A DNA stretch of 64,000 nucleotides from Sulfolobales archaeon HS-7 (GTDB lineage: Archaea; Thermoproteota; Thermoprotei_A; Sulfolobales; Sulfolobaceae): the NCBI GenBank assembly GCA_019704295.1, contig AP024596.1:1152001-1216000 (forward strand), given 5' to 3'. The notes under the pieces are model-generated. The model saw only the letters and a program-made list of their open reading frames with translations, did no database searches and was not told where the DNA came from. Shown one piece after another: positions 8,664 through 53,052 of this stretch (the stretch's first letter is position 1; each line of letters begins with the position of its first letter). A program made the position numbers and the translations under genes.

Positions 8664-9007
8664 GTTAGTCTTCTGGACTATTCTAGATACCTCATATGTC
8701 AATGTAAAGGTATAGCAAATTGAAGCCGATTAGCTGCCACCTCGCCTTTAACTTAAAGAAGTTAATAGCGCGAAAAGCATTGATAAGGGGCTTGGGCCTT
8801 ATCAAACCTTGGTATTTAAGGCTTAAATAATATGTTCCCTGATTTTAGGAAATATAATAAATAATACGTAAAAGAATCTAATCCTTAAATGAGGACAACT
8901 TCCCTTGATGAAAACTCTTAACTCTGCTATCAAGGACTTTCCATTAAACAATTATGAAAAAAATCGTTTGAAAGAAGATTTATTATTTTTTGCGTAAAGT
9001 TGTATAT

Positions 9008-10882
9008 ATGTATCTTCTGTTTGCCATAGCCCTATCGATGTTGCTGGTAATGCTATTCTCTATAACGGAGATCGAAAAGTGGAAGAGTGACAGGAGGGTA
9101 TTCCTCTCCTTATATCTAGTAGGAATGATGTTAACTATGAACTTAGGAGGTTACCTATGGTTAGCCTATCACCTCTTCTTCGTCTTCATTGCGCTTAATG
9201 CGGGTTACATGATAGGTGGACTATACGCGATAACTATGTTGGGGGAGATAAGGAAGTCAATAGCCTACATTACGTTCTCAATTCTTATGGTAGCATCTGA
9301 GGTTATTATGGGCTCCCTCTTCTACACCCTGAGTAACAAAGTACCCGCTACATTTAACGCCTCTGTCGAAAATCCGTGGTTTATCGGCGTAATGATCACC
9401 GAAATGTTATACACTATTCTCATATCTTATCGGCGAATGAATAGAACTCTACGCAATTACCTAATAGGCCTTCTGCTTCTCATGCCTTGGTTTCCCGATA
9501 TTTTCGGAGTGAGGGTTTCAACTTGGGTGTCGTCAGCGGTAATGATCGGAGTAACTGTGTTGATCTATGAGACGCTTTACAATAATCGACTTAGAGGCGA
9601 TCAGGAAGTGTACACTACAATAGAGCTAATTGCGATTTTCACTTTAATGATGGCGGGAGATTTCGTTCTCTTTCTTACAGGTTCCCTGGAAATCTTTGAC
9701 CTCTCAATGCTTGGTTCGATGTTATGGTTTATTTACAGGGCTCTATCCGGTCCTAATCCAGTCAAGGGAAATTACATGAGGAACTCTAAAATAGCCTTTA
9801 CCATCGTGGCGTTAACTTTTGTAATGGAGTTCTTTATGGGTGCGACGCTGGATTTCGTTCAGGGAGTATTTGCACCTACTTTGCGTGGGTTTATTTCCAG
9901 CTTAACTCTACCCTGGATAGCTGCTGTAAACCCCGTGGGGGTCTTATGGGACTTCACCGACATAGTGGGTAGCGTTCTCGGAAGTACCTGGTTCTTAATA
10001 ATGATGGGAATTGAGATGGGATTCCTCGCGTTCAAGAAAATGATGGAAATGAGAGTTAGGGAAGTTAGGATAAGGATGATGCTGATGATCGTTGCCTATG
10101 CACTTTACTCGGTTTACCTACCATCGTTCTCACCGATATCATCTAAAATACAGTTAATACCCTATATGTGGTCTATGGGGGTAGGAACTCTGGGTCCTGT
10201 CACCGGAGCTGTTTTAGGAGGACTAATCGGTACATACGTTATATACGCTGTCCTTTCCTTCCTCTTTGGGAGTAGGAATCTTTGCGCTATTTCCTGTACT
10301 GCCCCTCTAATGTATCAAGGTAACTTCTATGATTCCCTAAAGGTATATAACAGGAGTTCTTCACTAGGGAGGAAGACGTTAACCTCAAAACTCTCTTCGT
10401 TGTATAAGGCAGTGGCATTAGGAGTTTCATTACTAGTCTTGATATCAGCTGTGTTATCCTACCTCAGCGGGATCAAGGTTATTTCATTCTCTATATTCGG
10501 AACGGACATTACCGTGCTGATTTACTTCATATGGTTTGACGTGATCTGGTACGTTCTTTTCCTATCTATTCCTTTTCTAGGGACTTTCTCTTGCGTTACC
10601 TCAGGGTATTGTTATTGGGGAGTTTTCAATCAGGCGGTGAGTAGGATAGGCCTTTTTAGATTAAAGGTAAGAGACCCTAAGACGTGTTTGAACTGCAAAA
10701 CCGTCGACTGCGCTAACGCCTGCCCCGTGGGGTTGACAGATATGAGGGGAGAATTCCTAAGGAAAGGTGAGTTTAGATCTATGAAGTGTATAGGATTGGG
10801 CGAATGCGTTGATGCCTGTCCCTACGATAACATCTTCTTTTATGACGTGAGGAATTGGGTTAAGGAGAAGTTCAGGGGTTAA
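9008..10882 (+). CDS. Polytopic membrane protein with C-terminal 4Fe-4S dicluster (NapH/MauN-like tail)
   Basis: Many TM segments; CLNCKTVDCANACP and CIGLGECVDACP clusters; ATG at 9008 preferred over TTG at 8990. Confidence 0.82.
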   Translation: MYLLFAIALSMLLVMLFSITEIEKWKSDRRVFLSLYLVGMMLTMNLGGYLWLAYHLFFVFIALNAGYMIGGLYAITMLGEIRKSIAYITFSILMVASEVIMGSLFYTLSNKVPATFNASVENPWFIGVMITEMLYTILISYRRMNRTLRNYLIGLLLLMPWFPDIFGVRVSTWVSSAVMIGVTVLIYETLYNNRLRGDQEVYTTIELIAIFTLMMAGDFVLFLTGSLEIFDLSMLGSMLWFIYRALSGPNPVKGNYMRNSKIAFTIVALTFVMEFFMGATLDFVQGVFAPTLRGFISSLTLPWIAAVNPVGVLWDFTDIVGSVLGSTWFLIMMGIEMGFLAFKKMMEMRVREVRIRMMLMIVAYALYSVYLPSFSPISSKIQLIPYMWSMGVGTLGPVTGAVLGGLIGTYVIYAVLSFLFGSRNLCAISCTAPLMYQGNFYDSLKVYNRSSSLGRKTLTSKLSSLYKAVALGVSLLVLISAVLSYLSGIKVISFSIFGTDITVLIYFIWFDVIWYVLFLSIPFLGTFSCVTSGYCYWGVFNQAVSRIGLFRLKVRDPKTCLNCKTVDCANACPVGLTDMRGEFLRKGEFRSMKCIGLGECVDACPYDNIFFYDVRNWVKEKFRG

Positions 10883-11644: not shown

Positions 11645-11737
11645 TCCTAACGTAAGTGTGCTGTTGTGATTAGTTATGAGGATTAAAAATCTCAATTTAG
11701 TTCATATTATTAACTCACCAAAATCAGGAAAGTGCTT

Positions 11738-12469
11738 CTAGAGATCTAATTCAAGGTAAATAGGAGCGTGGTCAGATCCTGTAACCTTTTCGAGGATGTT
11801 TGCGTATTTTAAGTCGTCTCTCAACCCCTCTGATACAAGGCAATAATCGATCCTCCATCCTTCATTCCTTTCCCTAGCTTTCGTCACATAACTCCACCAT
11901 GTATACCTATCCCTCTCCCTATGAAACACCCTGAAGGTATCAATGAAGCCCTGTTCAAGGATATGCCTTAACCACGACCTCTCCTCGGGAGTTTGCCCAG
12001 GGAGCGTCGGATTTATGTACGCAGCGTCCCAGTCCTCTAGTATGGCATTAAAGTCCCCACATATTATAACCTCCTTTTCCCTTCTTAAATTAATAAGGAA
12101 TTTTTCAATAGCATAGTTGAATTCCATTTTATATTTTAACCTGGAGAGATTATCTCCTGCTCTAGGGAAGTAAGCGTTTACTGCGAAAAATTTCTCAAAT
12201 TCTAAGGTGAGAACTCTCCCCTCCCTATCGAATTCCTCGCCTATCCCCTTAATCACCCTCTTCGGCGGGAACCTTGAAAAAGTCATGACCCCACTATACC
12301 CTTTTTTCTCCGCTGGAAATAGGTAGACATTATACTCAAGCATTAGAGGAACTTCGTTAGTTCGGGCTTCCTGAATCATGATTATGTCATAACCGGTGAC
12401 TACGTCATCGAAGCCTTTCCTAGCTATAGATTTAAAACCGTTAACGTTCCAAGATAATATCCTTATCAT
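11738..12469 (-). CDS. xth: Exodeoxyribonuclease III / AP endonuclease
   Basis: SWNVNG, IQE, GDFN, GWRIDY and GSDHAP motifs. Confidence 0.95.
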   Translation of the reverse strand: MIRILSWNVNGFKSIARKGFDDVVTGYDIIMIQEARTNEVPLMLEYNVYLFPAEKKGYSGVMTFSRFPPKRVIKGIGEEFDREGRVLTLEFEKFFAVNAYFPRAGDNLSRLKYKMEFNYAIEKFLINLRREKEVIICGDFNAILEDWDAAYINPTLPGQTPEERSWLRHILEQGFIDTFRVFHRERDRYTWWSYVTKARERNEGWRIDYCLVSEGLRDDLKYANILEKVTGSDHAPIYLELDL

Positions 12470-12504
12470 CTGTATGTAATGTGCATGTAGGTATTAAAAA
12501 AGAT

Positions 12505-12837
12505 TCAGAAAGTTATAATCTGATAACCCTGGTTTACAAAATACGAAAGCCTTTCACCGAAATTTGAAAGACGTAATCCGAGTTGCGTCAACTGAGGCTT
12601 TATCCCCTTTGCCTCCGCTATTCCCACACACGCTGAGTCAACTACATCTGCCTTTATTAGTTCGTCAAACATTTGCTTTATATCCCCCGATAGCTTAGTT
12701 ACTCTCTCCTGGGCTGGGCCAAAAAATAACACCTTCGTGTCCTCGTATCTGTTGTTTTTCATTGACGTATATGCTACCCTAATTCCTAGGTCGCACTTCT
12801 CATCTCCTGACATAATTAAGAACAGAACTTTTGTCAT
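12505..12837 (-). CDS. DsrE-family protein
   Basis: VLFFGPA, SAC cysteine and GYQIITF C-terminus typical of DsrE-like proteins. Confidence 0.75.
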   Translation of the reverse strand: MTKVLFLIMSGDEKCDLGIRVAYTSMKNNRYEDTKVLFFGPAQERVTKLSGDIKQMFDELIKADVVDSACVGIAEAKGIKPQLTQLGLRLSNFGERLSYFVNQGYQIITF

Positions 12838-12883
12838 AAACGATTCTTTACATGACGAAATAAAAGATTGAGTTTATGTTTTT

Positions 12884-13213
12884 CTATGTTCCCTTGTACA
12901 GTTTAGATGCAACTTTTTTCCCTTCTTTTGTAAGTTGGTAATACACTCCCTTAGGCTTACCATCCATCATTCTAGCCTTTACCTTTAACCATGGTTTTAC
13001 TGAAGAGGTGGGCGATCTCTTTAGTTGACCTCGAAATACCTCTAAGTATCCTAGATCTACAAGTTGCTTGCATACCTTTTCTATCGCCTCCTCATCATAT
13101 ACAGGTGAGTAACCGCTTTTGCCGTTAAGTCTCCTAGCCATATACCATGGACTGTCAGGACCGTATTTGTATATGTGTATTAGAATAGATTTGGCTAAGT
13201 CGTCCATGCGCAT
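12884..13213 (-). CDS. Winged-helix protein (DUF2250-like)
   Basis: ILIHIYKYGPDSP and YYQLTKEGK wing motif. Confidence 0.65.
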   Translation of the reverse strand: MRMDDLAKSILIHIYKYGPDSPWYMARRLNGKSGYSPVYDEEAIEKVCKQLVDLGYLEVFRGQLKRSPTSSVKPWLKVKARMMDGKPKGVYYQLTKEGKKVASKLYKGT

Positions 13214-13275
13214 CTCCTCCGTGGTTCTACAAAAGACTTTTCACCTTCTGAAAAGAAAAGGTTGTAGGTGGAAAA

Positions 13276-14001
13276 GTGCCCTGTCAGGGAGTGCATAGGG
13301 TTCTAGCAGGTCCAATTGAGTTTCCCGAGTTCTCCTCAGTTTTCGTTATATGCGATGAGAAGGTAGTAGTGATCGACGGTGGGGTTCCGAATTCAACTAT
13401 GGACGCAGGTTTCCTTAACCAGGTTGACTACCTAGTTATTACTCACGCTCATGTAGATCACTTAGGCACCTTAAGGGAGATCGTTAGCAGATACAAACCT
13501 AAAATACTCATTTCTGAGCAAGAGTACCAGAGGATGGATTTCGAGAAAATTAACTCAGAGGGACGGGAAATCTACAAAGATCTAATGGAATTCTTCGGGG
13601 AAGCGGAGAAGGTAGAGGGGGAATTTGTCATAGTCGATGAGGACGATGAGTTTCCCTTGGGGGAGAACACGTTGAGAGTTATTTACTCTCCTGGTCACTC
13701 AAAGGGACATATATCAGTAATGATAGGGAACTTTCTTTATGCCGGCGACGCATTAGGGGCTATATTCAACGGAAGGTATTTTCCCCTGCTATTAAGAGGT
13801 TCTTCAAGGGAACAATATTACAGCTCGATTAGGAAATTACTTGAGTATAATCCAAGCATGATTGGATTAAGCCACGGAGGTCTACTTCCTTTCAGTGATG
13901 TGGAGAGGTCGATTAAGGAGAACTCTCCCCCCGGGGATTTCGGACTTGGAGGTACTGCGGAGGAAATCGCGAGGAAGTTCTCCTCCCTTTTCGTATATTA
14001 G
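13276..14001 (+). CDS. Metallo-beta-lactamase fold hydrolase
   Basis: THAHVDH, PGHSKGH, GDA and SHG metal ligands. Confidence 0.9.
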   Translation: MPCQGVHRVLAGPIEFPEFSSVFVICDEKVVVIDGGVPNSTMDAGFLNQVDYLVITHAHVDHLGTLREIVSRYKPKILISEQEYQRMDFEKINSEGREIYKDLMEFFGEAEKVEGEFVIVDEDDEFPLGENTLRVIYSPGHSKGHISVMIGNFLYAGDALGAIFNGRYFPLLLRGSSREQYYSSIRKLLEYNPSMIGLSHGGLLPFSDVERSIKENSPPGDFGLGGTAEEIARKFSSLFVY

Positions 14002-14555
14002 AGGAGGAATGTTCTAGATTTGTGAGAGACTAGTTTAGAAATGTAGTTCTTTAACGTATCATCGCATGCTCCTGCTAAGACCTTTTTCTCTAACTCCTTG
14101 TCTTTCCTGATCTCCTTTAACTCCGATTGTATCCTACCGTATTCCTCTTGGGGAATAATGGTAGTAACCGGTGTAGCCCTCAGGTCCTTAGCCACTATGG
14201 CTGCAGCTACCGACATTGCTTTCCTTCCTCCCGTAAAGTCAACGTAATCTCCGGGCTGAACTTTATTACGAAGTTCCCTTCTTATTACCTCGTAATCTTC
14301 CTTTGAGGTTACATCGCTCATAGGAAGGGGGATCTCAGCTATGCTTACCTTCTCGTTAAGGCACAGGAATATTTTCATTACCAATTTACCCGCCAACTGA
14401 ACCTCTGGATCCGCCGTCTTTACAACGTAGACCTCATCTATGGTAACTGGATACACGTTTTCTCCCTCGTAATTTCCGGTTGTTAAGTTCTTGTAAGTTT
14501 CGTAAATTCCACCAGGAGATGTTCCTAACGTAGCAACTAGTTTTACCATAGACAT
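13998..14555 (-). CDS. crn1: CRISPR-associated ring nuclease Crn1 (stand-alone CARF)
   Basis: VATLGTSPGG and DFTGGRKAMS CARF motifs; size of Sulfolobales Crn1. Confidence 0.85.
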   Translation of the reverse strand: MSMVKLVATLGTSPGGIYETYKNLTTGNYEGENVYPVTIDEVYVVKTADPEVQLAGKLVMKIFLCLNEKVSIAEIPLPMSDVTSKEDYEVIRRELRNKVQPGDYVDFTGGRKAMSVAAAIVAKDLRATPVTTIIPQEEYGRIQSELKEIRKDKELEKKVLAGACDDTLKNYISKLVSHKSRTFLL

Positions 14556-14737
14556 ATTGTAACGTACTTCCTTATAAAATTGGATTTTACGATAAACATC
14601 ACGTAACGCTTAGAGAAAGGGAAGTAAATTACGTAATTAAACGAATTCTTGACTGACGTATTTTATGAGTTATCTCCGTAATTGTTCGCGTTACTCAAGA
14701 GCTAAACTCTACCCGGTTTACCATAGCCTTTATACAC

Positions 14738-15148
14738 CTAAGAGGAAAGCGACTCCTTCTTCAGCGCGTCAAGAACTATCTTTCTGAATAGTTCGTCCAG
14801 TTCCTTTCCCATTTCCCCTAGACCCCATTTTTCAAAGACCTCAGCGGGGTCCCTATACTCAACGTACACCTCTCCTCCGTCCTCATAAACGTATATCCTC
14901 AGTGGCGGTTCTATTCCGGCTCTTATTTGCGTTGATATTACCCTGTAGGCAAGATCAGGTCTAAACACCTCGAATATGTAATTTCCGCCTACTTTGAAAC
15001 CGGCTTTTCTCATCCTCTCTCCAGCATCTATCTTATTAACTATAACCATGTGGTTCTCGGTTACGGATTTCTCGATCCTACTCAGGGTGCTGGAAAAATC
15101 GTAGGGAGATTTGAATACCTCCATATACGAGTTTTTTAAAAAATCCAA
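14738..15148 (-). CDS. DUF302 family protein
   Basis: PLRIYVYEDGGEVYVEY motif; alternative ATG start at 15124. Confidence 0.8.
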   Translation of the reverse strand: MDFLKNSYMEVFKSPYDFSSTLSRIEKSVTENHMVIVNKIDAGERMRKAGFKVGGNYIFEVFRPDLAYRVISTQIRAGIEPPLRIYVYEDGGEVYVEYRDPAEVFEKWGLGEMGKELDELFRKIVLDALKKESLSS

Positions 15149-15160
15149 ATAAAGTTAACT

Positions 15161-17191
15161 TCACTTGGCGGTTATTCTACGAAAGGGCTTGGTAACGTTT
15201 ATCGAAACTCCCTTCTCGTTGTAATCGAAAGGAACCTCGACACCGTCAACCTTTACTTCCCTGGGGACAACATTCCAATGAACTTTACTCACGTAAAGTG
15301 GTTCGGAAGTCTCGATCTCGTTCTCGTTGAATCTTACGATAACGTTGTTTACCCTTATTTCACCTTTTCCTGCTATGAAAAACCCGTCCCTTAGCTGTAC
15401 GAGGGAATTATCCCTAACGTATATTGGGAGATCGTTCTCCGAGTTCACATATCCTGAGTACTCCCTCATGGTCCAAAAGCTTATCCACTTTCCAGGCAAA
15501 TAGACACTCCTATTTTCCTTCCCTTTCTCTATAACAGGAGCGAAGAGTATTGAGGAACCGGCCATGTACTCGTCATCTACATAGCAGGAATCCTCATCTT
15601 CCTGAAATTCGTAAAAGAGAGGTCTAACGAAGAGAGTACCTTCCCTGCTGACCTCTTTCATTACCTCAGTTAAATAAGGAAGGAACCTATATCTGAGGGA
15701 AATTGTCTCGATCACTCTTCGCTTGTAGTATGAGGGGAGATAAATCGCCTCTACGTTAGTTCCATCTGTTGCCTTATGGGTTCTGTAAATAGGGAAAAAT
15801 AAAGCCATTTGATACTGCCTTAATAGCAATTCGTAAGAACTGTCGGAGGTCGAGGGACCTCTTCCCTGAAATCCGCCTATGTCTATTCCTACATAGGGAA
15901 TACCTGAAATCGACATCCCCAAAACCATCTGTAATTGCAATCTGAGCTGATCCCAGGAAGAGGTACTGTCTCCTGTCCAGGACGCTGCGTACCGTTGAAT
16001 ACCGGCAAATCCGGATCTGGAGAGAATGAAGGGCTTTTTCCCGGCTTTTAAAAGGCCCTCATGAGTTGCCATGGCTTGATAAAGGGGATAGGCGTTCCTG
16101 ACCTCATTGTGTAATATCTCCTTTCCTCTGAATACGTGGACAACGTCATCATCGAATGCGGTAAGGAATCTATCATCCCTTAACGCAATTCTCCCTAATT
16201 CTCCCTCGGGATGGGTTAGCCTAGAAAAGTCCGTAGGCTCGTTCATATCAAGCCAAATTCCGTCAATTCCTTGACTTACCCACCTCCTTATTTCCTCAGA
16301 CCACCAATCCCTGGTTTCCTCCTTGAAGAAGTCAGGGTATGCCGAGGAGCCCGGCCACATCCATCCTACGTAAAGCTCCCCGCTTCTCCTCTTACAGTAC
16401 TTACCCATCCCCCTTAAAAATACGTCATACTCCTGTTCTACCCTAACCGAGTGATCCACGATTGTTATTAGTTTGATTCCCCTTTCACTCAGTTGCCTAA
16501 TGAAATCTTGAGGATTGGGAAACCTCTCCTTATTCCAGGTAAATAGCTTAAAATTCTCCATGAAGTCTATGTCCAGAAATACTGCTGACACCTCAACGCC
16601 TTCCTTTTTCATTTCATCTAAGAGTTCTATTACTCTGTCCTGTGGGAAGTAGGTGTATCGAGACATCATGTATCCTAGAGACCACTCAGGTAACTCGGTA
16701 GGCATTCCCGTCAATTGGAAGTACCTCTTAATAACATCTTTAATTCTCGGTCCTTCTATAACGTAGAACTCTATTCCCGAAGACGGTACATTAACTATCA
16801 ATTTTGAGTAATCTGAAAACCCTATATCAAATTCAATTTTGGAAGCAGAATTAAAGAAAAAACCTGTAGCCTTATCGCCATTTACCGAGATTACGAAGGG
16901 GACGTTAAGGTACATCGGATCCTGATACTTAACGTAAACTCCAGGGTCTACATTCCACATAACGTATTTTTTGTGGTTCCTATCCAACTCAAAGGTCTTT
17001 TCTCCTAAGCCGAAAATCCTCTCCTTTAGCCCGAGCTTCTTTACGACAGTTGTTTCATTCCTCATCGTTAGACCAAAGTCCTCTGGGGTTACGTCGACCT
17101 TTGCGAACTCCGATTTAATGTCTAAGGCTGGAATAGGTTCATTTATTTCGAATTTAGTTATTCCCTCACTTTTATAGGATTTAATTTTCAC
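15161..17191 (-). CDS. malA: Alpha-glucosidase, GH31
   Basis: WLDMNEP nucleophile motif, WTGD, DIGGF. Confidence 0.9.
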   Translation of the reverse strand: MKIKSYKSEGITKFEINEPIPALDIKSEFAKVDVTPEDFGLTMRNETTVVKKLGLKERIFGLGEKTFELDRNHKKYVMWNVDPGVYVKYQDPMYLNVPFVISVNGDKATGFFFNSASKIEFDIGFSDYSKLIVNVPSSGIEFYVIEGPRIKDVIKRYFQLTGMPTELPEWSLGYMMSRYTYFPQDRVIELLDEMKKEGVEVSAVFLDIDFMENFKLFTWNKERFPNPQDFIRQLSERGIKLITIVDHSVRVEQEYDVFLRGMGKYCKRRSGELYVGWMWPGSSAYPDFFKEETRDWWSEEIRRWVSQGIDGIWLDMNEPTDFSRLTHPEGELGRIALRDDRFLTAFDDDVVHVFRGKEILHNEVRNAYPLYQAMATHEGLLKAGKKPFILSRSGFAGIQRYAASWTGDSTSSWDQLRLQLQMVLGMSISGIPYVGIDIGGFQGRGPSTSDSSYELLLRQYQMALFFPIYRTHKATDGTNVEAIYLPSYYKRRVIETISLRYRFLPYLTEVMKEVSREGTLFVRPLFYEFQEDEDSCYVDDEYMAGSSILFAPVIEKGKENRSVYLPGKWISFWTMREYSGYVNSENDLPIYVRDNSLVQLRDGFFIAGKGEIRVNNVIVRFNENEIETSEPLYVSKVHWNVVPREVKVDGVEVPFDYNEKGVSINVTKPFRRITAK

Positions 17192-44873: not shown

Positions 44874-46622
44874 ATGCGAGTGAGAATTAAGAATATAGGC
44901 GGGTTAAGCAGTCTAGACGTGAAAATAGATAAAGGACTTACTCTGTATAAGGCCCCCAACTCTTACGGGAAAACATCATTAGTTAGGGCTTTGATATCGC
45001 TTTTGACGAGCGAGGTTAAGGCGGAGGATCTCCTAAACGTTTCGGAAGACGAGGGATTAATAGAACTGCACCTGGACGACGACACGTACTTCAGGAAAAT
45101 AGCCAGGCGAGGAAGAAGGATAATGGAGGAGAAGAAGCTATTAATGGACGACAGAAGGGCACTCTACCTATCATTTTTCTCTCCTGAGAATAAGATAGTT
45201 AATCAGATAACGACAGGGAATGAGGACATAGAGTGGTTCCTATCGGAGACCTCTCAAATAAACGCCCTTGCTGCGAAAAGGAATGAACTCGAACAATACC
45301 TTTCCTCCCTGGAGAAGAAACAGGGTGAGTTGATGAGGAAATACAAGGAGTCCTCTCAGGCCATAGATAAAATAAAGGAAATAGAATTGGAAATGGAGAA
45401 AATACAGAATGATATAAAGATGTCCCAGGTAGCGAACAACACTAACGTTGCTCTTCTAGTGACTAAAACGAATAAGATAGAGGACTTGAAACAGAAGATA
45501 AATGCAAGAAAGGAGGAACTTGAAAACACTAGGAAAGTATTTGAGAGGTATAAGGCGAAGGAAAACGAGATAACGCAAAAGATAGACTACAAGTACAAGG
45601 AAACCCTTAAACAGAAATTGAGCGATCTAGTCCAGAGAATAGAGAGTAAGAGTCAACTCATACGGGAAGTTGAGGCTAATGTTTCTTTCCTTAAGAAGAT
45701 ATTAGAGGGTGTGCAGGACGCGCAGAGGAAGCACCTCGAGACGTGTTACTTGTGCGGTACCAACGTTAACCCCGAACACTGGAACGCTAGAATAACCGAA
45801 ATAAGCTCAGAGATAACAAAGGCTAACAGTTCGATTTCGGCAATAAGGATGGAGCTAGACCAGTTACAGAGGGAAAAAGAGGACGCGGAACAGCAGATGT
45901 CCGCAATAGAGAAGGTAGAAAATGAGTTAGAAATCGTTAGAAGTAAGGCTAAGGAAATTGAGAAGAAAATGGAGTTAATACAATCGGACATAGATAACCT
46001 AGAAAGGCAACTCAGAGAAGCTGAGGGAGTCATGCGGAGTAGTATAATGTTCGCAACAACAAGGACTTCCGAACTTAATAGGAAACTGGAAGAACTTGCG
46101 AAGAAGAAGGCGGAAGTAGAGGATGAACTCCTAGAAAACGGTACGCCCGCATCCTTAATGGATGAAATACATGAACTCGACGAGGAGATAAGAAGCGTTA
46201 GGAAGAGAGTTGAGGAAATTACCAACGAGTACGTGAACAGAATAACCTCCGTGAGGGAGAACTTCAATAGGGAAATAGAGAGATTGACTGCGAGTATGGG
46301 TTTCGACTTCCACGCGGAAATTAATGAGAGGTTTAAAATAGTGGTTCGCAGGAAAAACGTTACTTTAGACCTGAGGAAACTCTCTTCATCTGAGAGGGTT
46401 ACAATAGCTCTTGTGGTGGTCGTAGCCGCGATGAAGTCCTACTTCAAGACGCCGTTCTTCATAGTTGACGAAATGTTCATGACTTATGATCAGAAGAGAT
46501 GGGATGCAATATTGAGCTATATCATCACACTAGCTCCCTACGTCATAGTAACGAGATCTGAGGAAAGACCGTCAATCACCTCGGTGAGCTCCGAACCTCA
46601 GGAAGAGATATATCAACAATAG
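44874..46622 (+). CDS. clsN: Archaea-specific SMC-related ATPase, probable coalescin
   Basis: APNSYGKTS Walker A, long coiled coils, central CYLC hook, LSSSE signature, IVDE Walker B; 582 aa. Confidence 0.75.
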   Translation: MRVRIKNIGGLSSLDVKIDKGLTLYKAPNSYGKTSLVRALISLLTSEVKAEDLLNVSEDEGLIELHLDDDTYFRKIARRGRRIMEEKKLLMDDRRALYLSFFSPENKIVNQITTGNEDIEWFLSETSQINALAAKRNELEQYLSSLEKKQGELMRKYKESSQAIDKIKEIELEMEKIQNDIKMSQVANNTNVALLVTKTNKIEDLKQKINARKEELENTRKVFERYKAKENEITQKIDYKYKETLKQKLSDLVQRIESKSQLIREVEANVSFLKKILEGVQDAQRKHLETCYLCGTNVNPEHWNARITEISSEITKANSSISAIRMELDQLQREKEDAEQQMSAIEKVENELEIVRSKAKEIEKKMELIQSDIDNLERQLREAEGVMRSSIMFATTRTSELNRKLEELAKKKAEVEDELLENGTPASLMDEIHELDEEIRSVRKRVEEITNEYVNRITSVRENFNREIERLTASMGFDFHAEINERFKIVVRRKNVTLDLRKLSSSERVTIALVVVVAAMKSYFKTPFFIVDEMFMTYDQKRWDAILSYIITLAPYVIVTRSEERPSITSVSSEPQEEIYQQ

Positions 46623-49761: not shown

Positions 49762-50407
49762 TTATTCATATCCTAGTTCACGAAAATATTTTTTTCCATT
49801 AAATCTTTTAGACGCTCCCTGAGAGTTTTTTTGACATTTTTACTCAACATTAAAGTCTCCATCGGTTTCCGTCGCATTCTTATCGGATCTTCCGTTATCT
49901 TAATGGACAAAAACTTTAATGAACTATTAACTTTTAACTACCGAAACCTAACTCTTTTTACATCAAATAAGTTTTAGGTCGACTAGGAGAGCTATGAATC
50001 AAATCTTACCAAGTAACTACTTCACATGATGCCTCGGTTTTGTAAAAATCGCTGTGTTTCATAACTTTTATAAAAATTATATAAATTTTTATATATTTAT
50101 TTTAAGGTACAGAATAAGATATGATTAAGAGGAATTCCGTAATTTGACTCATATTTTAAAAAAATCTCAAAATATAGAAATTACTATTAAACGTCGCACG
50201 CATTTGCGCCGTTAATGCTTTCATTGCGGATTATAATTTATAAGAAAGTATGAAAAAATACAGTAAATTACTAAGTTTAAATCCCTATGCAGTGATTCCA
50301 CTAGTATTGAATTAAATTTGTTACAGTTACTAAAATAAACTGATTTTTTAAAGGATACGTGAATCACTCCTACGGCTTTCTCGGTAGGAGATAAAACGTA
50401 AATGGAG

Positions 50408-51070
50408 TTAGAGAAGTCCATTATTATAAATTGCAAGTTTAGTAAGCTCATATATTACTTCGATGTTAGTTTCTACGGAGATTTGACAAAAATTAGCTTG
50501 AGTCGGAGAATATCCGTAAAGTAGAAATAGGGACCGGGCAACTAGTTTTGGAATATTATACCTCTTATTTTTCAATTCCTTTTCAATGTGGCTCTGAATA
50601 CCCAAATATATGTAACTCCATGACTGAGCTAAACCGTGCTTATCTAATATTGCACGTATTTGCTGCTCTACATTTTTTCTTTTTTTCCTGTACTGAAGCC
50701 ACTTAGCTGCCCTCTCTAAGTCTTTAGTCTTAATTGCCATTCTATATGCTGCAGATACGTCCTCGTTGGGAGTATTATATGATGCTATGTATATAATGTT
50801 ATTTAGGCCTTGTGTCGATTGTCGCACATCATCCTCTTCTATGCGTCCTCCCTTCAAGCTAAGTAACTTAAAGTGGAGGAATATTAGGATGAATTTGGCC
50901 TGGTCATCGTTAGTGGGCATTGGCTCGATTCTTAATGTCTGCCCGTCGAATACTATTCTACATTGGGAAAAAGGTTCTGCGAATTCGTATTTTTGATGAC
51001 CGCCATTCCTCATTATGGTCTCTACCTCGTTCCTGTATTTTTCTATGTATTTTTGTATCTTTTCCGTCAT
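50408..51070 (-). CDS. Uncharacterised protein; C-terminal half resembles the SIRV2-fold viral capsid domain
   Basis: 220 aa ORF starting directly after the nuclease stop (TAA ATG); capsid similarity is by eye only. Confidence 0.55.
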   Translation of the reverse strand: MTEKIQKYIEKYRNEVETIMRNGGHQKYEFAEPFSQCRIVFDGQTLRIEPMPTNDDQAKFILIFLHFKLLSLKGGRIEEDDVRQSTQGLNNIIYIASYNTPNEDVSAAYRMAIKTKDLERAAKWLQYRKKRKNVEQQIRAILDKHGLAQSWSYIYLGIQSHIEKELKNKRYNIPKLVARSLFLLYGYSPTQANFCQISVETNIEVIYELTKLAIYNNGLL

Positions 51071-52015
51071 TTACCTACACCTAGAACTTATTTTATCAAT
51101 AAAATTATTTAAATCATCATTATTTTCCAAATACTTAATACCTCCTTTTCTTATTAACGTAACTTTAACTTTAGAGTTCGTCCTACCGGTATTATCAACT
51201 ATGTTCAATTCTACGGCATCATCCCTTGGGTTAACAGCAACACCGTAAGGTACTTTAAATTTCTTTCGATTGCTTAGTAATTCTATGTATTTAAATAATT
51301 GAATCCAATCGACGCTTTTAAATTTGAGCCTTTTTACTTCAATAGGTATATAACAATTTCCTACTTGCAACAAAGTATCTATCTTACCTTCGATTGATCT
51401 CCCGACTTCCATGAAGTTAGCAATCTCATATTCCGGGTAAACATTAAGATTGTATTCCATTAAGAGCCTGGCTAGCTCGTATTGATAAAACGCCTCATTA
51501 TCTAACCCGTAACTTTTCGCGTCGATTTTCCCCTTAGTCTCGCTAGATATAATTTTAAAGATGTCCCTGATTATACCTTCCAAATCGTTTGGAGATTGCA
51601 CGGGTAATATGCCCATGGGTATTACAGGGTTAATATATTTCAGGCATTCATAATCAAACTCATTCTTGAAAAGGAGGACATTAATATTATACGAGGCTTG
51701 ATACCTATAAGAAATTGCAAATACACCGTAAAAGGAAGGTTGTACCTGTGAAGAATACTCGACAATTTGATCTAAGGCAGGTGTCTCTGTGCGACTTTCC
51801 TTAAATTCCAATAATAACCTTAAATTCAAGTCGGAGTCCGCCAATGCGAAATCTGCCCTTTTACGCTTAATAGGCATTTCAAGCATAGGAGTAAGATACT
51901 CTACATTATTAATTATGAAATTATTCGAAATAAGTAACTTCATTACTTGAGAATAGAACATTAGTTTACCTAAACTTTCCAGATTCGGGCCTGAAGAATC
52001 CTCGACTATGGCCAT
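51071..52015 (-). CDS. Protein with two tandem PD-(D/E)XK nuclease domains
   Basis: RADF..LEFKE..QIVEY and E..YQ..PEY..KIDT..IEVKR..QLFKY. Confidence 0.78.
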   Translation of the reverse strand: MAIVEDSSGPNLESLGKLMFYSQVMKLLISNNFIINNVEYLTPMLEMPIKRKRADFALADSDLNLRLLLEFKESRTETPALDQIVEYSSQVQPSFYGVFAISYRYQASYNINVLLFKNEFDYECLKYINPVIPMGILPVQSPNDLEGIIRDIFKIISSETKGKIDAKSYGLDNEAFYQYELARLLMEYNLNVYPEYEIANFMEVGRSIEGKIDTLLQVGNCYIPIEVKRLKFKSVDWIQLFKYIELLSNRKKFKVPYGVAVNPRDDAVELNIVDNTGRTNSKVKVTLIRKGGIKYLENNDDLNNFIDKISSRCR

Positions 52016-52322
52016 ATTAAGTATTATTTTTATAAAGAATAAAATAATTAACTAATAAGATAGTCCAGGCGATTAAGGTCTATTTTATTAACTACAATCA
52101 ACAGATAAGATGGATACAATAAAGTAAACTGTAGAGCAAACTATAGAGCGTAATTCCCCTAATTTGCCAATTCGAGGGTGTCGTTTACGTCTCCCTGGCG
52201 GGTTATAGAATTCTCCGCTAAATTAATATATTTTAGTAAATAATAATTTAAATATATATTCAAATAATAGGAGAAATTGGAGTACCTATAATGTTATTAC
52301 AAATATGAGAGGGGTTTACAGG

Positions 52323-52586
52323 TTATACGTGAGGGAAATGGTTGTGATTTACAAAATCCTTCAAGGGGCAGAATAGACCAAAACTCCTCCTTTCAACAAG
52401 GGAATTGAATGACTTCACAAGGTTGTTGTTTTTAGCCACTTCGCCTATAGCGAAAAGGCAGTTGAGCACATCGTTTTTGTCTACAGAGGGATTTCCATCT
52501 TTAGGGTGAGGGACGAACTTGTTTAACTCCTTCATCTCGCTCACGTTAAGCTTCAAGTGGACAACATAGTATCTCTCAACCCTCAT
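52323..52586 (-). CDS. Small hypothetical protein or gene remnant
   Basis: 87 aa ORF with ATGA overlap to an upstream 63 aa ORF; no recognisable motif. Confidence 0.3.
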   Translation of the reverse strand: MRVERYYVVHLKLNVSEMKELNKFVPHPKDGNPSVDKNDVLNCLFAIGEVAKNNNLVKSFNSLVERRSFGLFCPLKDFVNHNHFPHV

Positions 52587-53052
52587 TCTAGAGGTGCAAA
52601 TAGCAGACTGTAAGGCAGTACAGTCCTCAAGTGTACTCGCTTTCTCCGTACAGAGTCAGATAAAGTCTTCAATTTCGTGTGATCTCCATAAAGTATTATC
52701 CTATCATAGAATTCTCGTGTTATTCCTAACAAAAATTTAGATTTTAAACTTAAACTTAATTTTACGTCGTACACTGTAATGTACTTTCTACAAGTAAATA
52801 AACTGAAATTTTACATCGGATAACTAACTAATTTAGCTTCCGATGAAGGAGTTTTGTAACTTCTACTAATTATTTGTGTTATTCACGTTTAACACAACCC
52901 TTATGCATCTCGTGAACTAAACGCTCAGAGGAAAACTGTCCCAATAATTATGTGGGTGAGACTATCAGAGTTGTGAACCCCCACGTAGAGAATTATACCT
53001 TAAGATCCTAAGTTGAGGATAAAGATTTAACTTATTGCAAAGAGTTATCGTC

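Follow-up and report, generated by a model that had tools for sequence, protein, structure and literature searches.

Sulfolobales archaeon HS-7, which originates from an Unzen hot spring (PMC8459659), carries a two-gene cassette that is real, rare and unclassified. Its first gene encodes a predicted tandem PD-(D/E)XK nuclease and its second a partner whose C-terminal half resembles, in predicted structure, the major capsid proteins of Adnaviria. We tentatively propose an antiviral role, in which a capsid domain captured from a virus would associate with viral capsid protein on the viral DNA and recruit the nuclease. The cassette lies in a stretch of 64,000 nucleotides, hereafter the window, of the closed HS-7 genome (2,151,177 bp, 39.6% GC). 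Its features and those directly beside it are the following, in window positions.

51071-52015, minus strand: gene 1, 314 aa, two tandem PD-(D/E)XK nuclease domains (predicted)
51536-52015, minus strand: nuclease domain 1, about aa 1-160, with D55, E70-F-K72 and Q83xxxY87; HsdR-N-like
51074-51505, minus strand: nuclease domain 2, aa 171-314, with E174, D213, E226-V-K228 and Q239xxxY243
50408-51070, minus strand: gene 2 (the partner), 220 aa, its start abutting the gene 1 stop (TAAATG)
50846-51070, minus strand: partner N-terminal domain, aa 1-75; helix, three strands, helix; kept in Acidianus
50420-50767, minus strand: partner C-terminal domain, aa 102-217; basic helical arm and four-helix bundle, predicted to be Adnaviria (SIRV2-fold) capsid-like
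50367-50390, minus strand: hairpin with a 7-bp stem and a 10-nt loop, 18 nt past gene 2, overlapping the edge of the repeat
50201-50376, no strand: dispersed non-coding repeat of about 170 bp, a neighbour outside the cassette

Both open reading frames are real at these coordinates and, as the initial annotation had described, the TAA of gene 1 abuts the ATG of gene 2. The cassette is chromosomal, lies in metabolic-gene surroundings between glycerophosphodiesterase and aldo/keto reductase genes, and sits outside any defence island. A family scan of nine neighbours (44.9-57.9 kb of the window) detected no methyltransferase, integrase or viral gene, and no tRNA lies within the window. The earlier statements that no methyltransferase is nearby and that the genes are not a classical restriction-modification pair therefore hold for the neighbours scanned; Type I and II restriction-modification systems differ from the cassette in this respect, since it has neither an adjacent nor a fused methyltransferase among them. 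The unit had also been called visibly AT-rich. It is AT-rich, but only mildly so: the GC content is 39.6% in the genome, 34.6% in gene 1 (lowest 6% of genes) and 37.4% in gene 2 (lowest 19%), and the bias appears stronger than it is because the neighbours have 43-48% GC.

As for the long AT-rich non-coding flanks that had been noted, the downstream one is partly made of the dispersed repeat, itself AT-rich, which has about 35 other matches across the HS-7 genome at 67-89% identity. Clear terminal inverted repeats were absent from the 12 copies that we aligned, and the repeat may be an ancient MITE-like element or else a structured RNA. The hairpin is present as first reported, but it is absent from the other aligned copies of the repeat and was not called by a terminator scan; it carries no weight here. 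We also observed two short minus-strand open reading frames (87 and 63 aa, no family) at 52210-52774, parts of which recur in the HS-7 genome at C1:51054-51218, 303700-303780 and 1405995-1406087; these are probably decayed pieces of mobile elements. About 4 kb from the cassette, positions 44874-46622 encode a 582-aa SMC/Rad50-like coiled-coil ATPase (AAA_23, weak match).

Gene 1 had been said to hold two complete nuclease motif sets, and our alignment bears this out: every position of both catalytic D...E-x-K and QxxxY sets is invariant across three homologues. Gene 1 is 43-44% identical to two homologues, both of which retain the two motif sets. The fold assignment of domain 1 rests on the motifs because the N-terminal domain is poorly modelled (pLDDT under 50); a Pfam HSDR_N_2 match to aa 47-95 (E 2e-4) stays below the cut-off. 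The homologues show two HSDR_N_2 stretches. For domain 2, both homologues pass the Pfam PDDEXK_3 cut-off, and the model matches BpuSI (Z 10.7) and the Holliday junction resolvases Hjc and Hje (Z 9.4-9.7) by fold. Comparison of the two nuclease halves gave no sign of a recent internal duplication (E 0.35). Gene 1 shares the motifs and, for domain 2, the predicted fold of PD-(D/E)XK nucleases such as HsdR N-terminal domains, type IIG enzymes, Hjc/Hje, McrC and Cas4, but it differs from them in having two such domains in 314 aa, without helicase, methyltransferase, GTPase, CARF or Fe-S module.

An identity of gene 1 as Cas4 was considered and rejected, since there is one invariant cysteine where Cas4 has a four-cysteine Fe-S site, and the score is 21 bits against a cut-off of 65. 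The closest CRISPR array is about 170 kb from the cassette (no cas context). PADLOC models (2023 library) gave only weak scores, for Cas4 (E 6e-5) and RTasYodC (E 0.003), and no system fits, in keeping with the earlier impression that the architecture matches no described defence system.

Gene 2 had been described as having no obvious cellular family and a capsid-like C-terminal half. We found no Pfam or PHROG match for it, and among 5.8 billion proteins its relatives are pieces from Acidianus only. Its AlphaFold model, built on 3 sequences, consists of an alpha/beta domain of 75 aa, followed by a disordered linker and then by a C-terminal half made wholly of helices (mean pLDDT 70, pTM 0.47). 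In a structure search against 48,161 PDB representatives, ranks 1-4, 8, 9, 12 and 13 were major capsid proteins of Adnaviria, that is eight of the top 13 matches, coming from six viruses (AFV1, SIFV, SFV1, SIRV, SSRV1 and PFV2; Z 6.4-8.7). The best match places aa 102-217 on residues 7-132 of an AFV1 capsid protein (Z 8.7, rmsd 2.7 Å, 102 residues), and in a second structure comparison the top six were capsid entries. The SIRV2 fold is defined by a helical arm and a four-helix bundle (PMC7189273). In the predicted model, the bundle (aa 131-217) superposes on AFV1 ORF132 with Z 8.7 and an rmsd of 2.6 over 75 residues, and the arm aligns from aa 99-102 onto residues 3-7 of the SIFV and AFV1 capsid proteins, with pLDDT 60-89. 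Between aa 102 and 145, the arm has 12 lysines and arginines against 6 aspartates and glutamates. The structure search therefore supports the capsid-like half, with a Z of 8.7 that is modest for a helical domain.

The sequence evidence is weak but agrees with the structural one. Against the capsid profiles of rudiviruses, SIFV-1 and AFV1-132 and against the pooled one, E-values were 6e-4 to 0.03; each of these matches falls on one and the same helix-Gly-helix, and the values are comparable to those obtained among true capsid families. The SIFV-2 and AFV1-140 capsid profiles gave no signal for gene 2. With the pooled capsid HMM, gene 2 ranked second of 2,351 host open reading frames (E 0.026), and its C-terminal half scored 22.9 against a maximum of 21.1 among 400 decoys; the Acidianus partner alone fails to beat the decoys (14.6). 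The capsid family PF12193, like PHROG, gave no match to gene 2, and in 47 genomes of the family no PF12193 match exceeded the cut-off. True Adnaviria capsid proteins may themselves share no detectable sequence similarity (PMC7189273). We consider that the C-terminal half of gene 2 is probably a true homologue of Adnaviria capsid proteins, because the hypothesis preceded the tests and the matches to the model concentrate on one family that infects this order. We regard it as a homologue and not as a virion protein, because it is chromosomal among metabolic genes and was not found in IMG/VR or INPHARED. In comparison with the major capsid proteins of Adnaviria (AFV1 ORF132/140, SIFV, SIRV2, SFV1, SSRV1 and PFV2), gene 2 shares the predicted basic arm and four-helix bundle, as well as the host order, but it is chromosomal, fused to the 75-aa alpha/beta domain and coupled to a nuclease gene.

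The solved capsid proteins that were matched are 126-204 aa long and the N-terminal domain of the partner aligns to none of them. Structure matches of this domain are generic helical ones only (Z 6.5 or less), with no known family, and we see in it a candidate adaptor. The ESM Atlas, searched by features and by shape, returned nothing usable. An NCBIfam 'RNA-binding protein' match to gene 2 (E 2e-4, 21 bits against 281) was rejected because it is not repeated by the Acidianus partner and because the PF01877 genes, which we take to be that family, are located elsewhere in the HS-7 genome. P0007 and P0010, from the representative search, were discarded as repeat artefacts in unrelated organisms.

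The capsomers of Adnaviria are homo- or heterodimers, often of two divergent paralogues; they assemble in the cytoplasm, where they wrap viral DNA (PMC12282232). A host capsid-fold protein with an added domain could enter such a growing filament. The capsid-like domain would pair with newly made viral capsid protein or co-polymerise on viral DNA, and this co-assembly may by itself spoil virion assembly. It would also cluster the extra N-terminal domain, which might recruit or switch on the nuclease, whose two active sites in one chain could cut both strands, so that viral genomes under packaging would be destroyed or the infected cell killed. The partner would act as a sensor or activator, not as an antidote, and the targets would presumably be filamentous archaeal viruses (rudiviruses, lipothrixviruses). 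That the partner is a domesticated chromosomal homologue of Adnaviria capsid proteins and acts as decoy or sensor, entering the capsid assembly of the invader and directing the tandem nuclease at it, seems to us plausible though short of probable; beyond fold, linkage and selection, we infer every step.

Retention of the basic arm also fits an unlikely alternative, a defence against foreign DNA in which the capsid-derived domain forms homodimers that wrap DNA, perhaps at linear ends or in A-form, and direct the nuclease against any incoming virus or plasmid. Binding of DNA by capsid arms is not sequence-specific (PMC7189273), and a nuclease without a methyltransferase needs another way to discriminate self from foreign; a non-specific clamp, however, has no obvious means to spare the chromosome.

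It is distinctly unlikely that the C-terminal half is an ordinary helical bundle and the cassette a nuclease-plus-accessory conflict module without viral ancestry. A Z of 8.7 is within reach of common helical arrangements. It is lower than the value of about 13 suggested by the tool for helical bundles, and unrelated chains reach 7.6 (an RNA-polymerase subdomain) and 6.9. Foldseek E-values were not significant against either the PDB or a viral library, as was also the case for Pfam and PHROG, and sequence identity to Adnaviria capsid proteins is 9-18%. Nevertheless, a generic bundle is not expected to draw the capsids of six Adnaviria viruses, arm included, into the top 13 of 48,161 structures; moreover, the matched viruses infect the same host order and the sequence ranks agree independently.

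Outside HS-7, an intact pair in the same order and with overlapping stop and start was found on the metagenome contig OGCG01002815 (locus L009). The corresponding locus of an Acidianus hospitalis assembly (L003) is 99% identical to it and has an intact nuclease and a one-base frameshift in the partner, which could be an assembly error. In Acidianus sp. HS-5 the intact nuclease is followed by an IS remnant, with no partner behind, and the partner is truncated, its C-terminal half surviving 1 Mb from the nuclease among pseudogenes. Of the three Acidianus loci, two thus combine an intact nuclease with a partner that is frameshifted or displaced. Four loci are known in total and two of them are near-identical (99%), so that co-conservation rests on two independent intact cases. 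Both genes are present in 2 of the 351 genomes searched in the class, and the gene order is the same in HS-7 and Acidianus, which agrees with the patchy co-occurrence across Sulfolobales suggested at the outset. Scans of genome contigs and viral contigs gave no further loci, and the pair was not found in IMG/VR, INPHARED or PLSDB. One other genome (G035) has only a single-domain nuclease relative of 147 aa, without partner match. Between the two genera, in which both genes are intact at 40-46% identity (gene 1 46%, gene 2 40%), synonymous sites are saturated or nearly so (pS 0.58-0.90) and pN is 0.32-0.41, which indicates that both genes have long been under purifying selection.

The initial annotation had also considered that the partner holds the nuclease inactive until it is titrated. 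We give little credence to such an addiction or guard system, in which the partner would keep a toxic tandem nuclease silent until viral capsid protein titrates the partner away. The coupled two-gene layout would suit it, and the top Foldseek rows are the Wolbachia toxins CinB and CidB, with a TM of 0.23-0.27 only. Like the CinA-CinB and CidA-CidB pairs, the cassette is a two-gene unit with a tandem PD-(D/E)XK protein, but the gene 1 nuclease is half the size of CinB/CidB and the partner gene comes second here. In the Wolbachia pairs the antidote gene precedes the toxin gene. A plain antitoxin is further argued against by the nuclease reading frame that is intact with a frameshifted partner in A. 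hospitalis, and with the truncated partner 1 Mb away in HS-5.

Very little credence is left for a non-functional, decaying relic of a filamentous virus or other mobile element, for although the pair is very rare, mildly AT-rich and broken in two of four loci, with the HS-5 fragment among pseudogenes, no viral gene lies beside any locus examined, the viral and plasmid collections named above do not contain the pair, both genes have stayed intact in two genera with synonymous sites saturated, and the partner has an extra N-terminal domain that the matched capsid proteins lack.

The Acidianus neighbourhoods contain DUF3800, PaREP1, an HTH protein, a CARF-like APE2256, an AAA_21 ATPase pair and IS genes, which suggests that they are variable conflict islands. 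Directly upstream of the nuclease in L009 (4663-5286), we observed a 207-aa gene with a DGNHR (ParB/DndB-like) motif, which in A. hospitalis is split in two, as is the partner; this gene is a possible third member of the cassette in Acidianus. An HTH protein and a 232-aa HExxH protein, resembling a repressor/metallopeptidase pair, also lie beside the cassette (L009:2986-4210). In A. hospitalis, the CARF-like APE2256 (L003:5981-6607) lies downstream, about 1.2 kb from the cassette, on a contig where further cas genes were not seen. The HS-5 nuclease is located between a sugar-modification cluster and a 636-aa membrane-tailed protein without assignment (L007:155-5501 and 11722-17005), the latter being followed by the AAA_21 ATPase pair. 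Upstream of the displaced HS-5 partner fragment lies a decayed copy of this pair (L004, about 8690-9600), and not an IS. The same 35-bp element end (91%) occurs at L004:7707-7741 and L007:10779-10813, which hints at a part for an IS in the break-up of the HS-5 cassette.

In CapRel-type anti-phage systems, the viral major capsid protein triggers the effector, and the sensors are not known to be capsid-derived. The trigger that we propose is the same, but effectors and hosts differ and the partner here is predicted to be capsid-derived. Mouse Fv1 is a viral capsid gene kept by its host, which restricts viruses by binding the capsid lattice. Encapsulins are likewise domesticated viral capsid proteins kept by the host (PMC8987985). 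Their folds (HK97 for encapsulins, retroviral Gag for Fv1) differ from that of the partner, and neither is known to be paired with a nuclease. The cassette can thus be likened to capsid-triggered defence and to domesticated capsids, and is a member of neither. Should the cassette serve in defence, it would offer a prokaryotic counterpart of Fv1-type restriction, coupled to a nuclease and built from the virus's own hallmark protein, in a host group whose immune systems other than CRISPR have been little charted.

An entire virus realm is defined by the SIRV2 fold, which among viruses is reported to occur nowhere else (PMC12282232). Our incomplete coverage of the literature turned up no report of a cellular protein that has this fold. 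If a chromosomal copy is kept under selection, it would represent either the capture of a capsid gene or a hint at the origin of the fold, and since the pair is rare, we favour capture. The cassette is directly testable in the SIRV2-Saccharolobus system.

Finally, three spacers of one HS-7 CRISPR array (L080:145-173, 210-246 and 743-776; C1:1446000-1447450) resemble the rudiviruses SIRV2, SBRV1 and ARV1, with individually weak E-values of 0.1-5, and nine of the ten spacer-match records listed are rudiviruses. This shows that the HS-7 lineage meets rudivirus-type viruses and nothing beyond. The match of spacer 210-246 occurs twice in each of the SBRV1 and ARV1 genomes, close to their ends. Within an array of 53 repeats, we observed at L079:2357-2392 (C1 about 1455200) a match to Sulfolobus turreted icosahedral virus 1 (89%, E 0.03), which is presumably a spacer.
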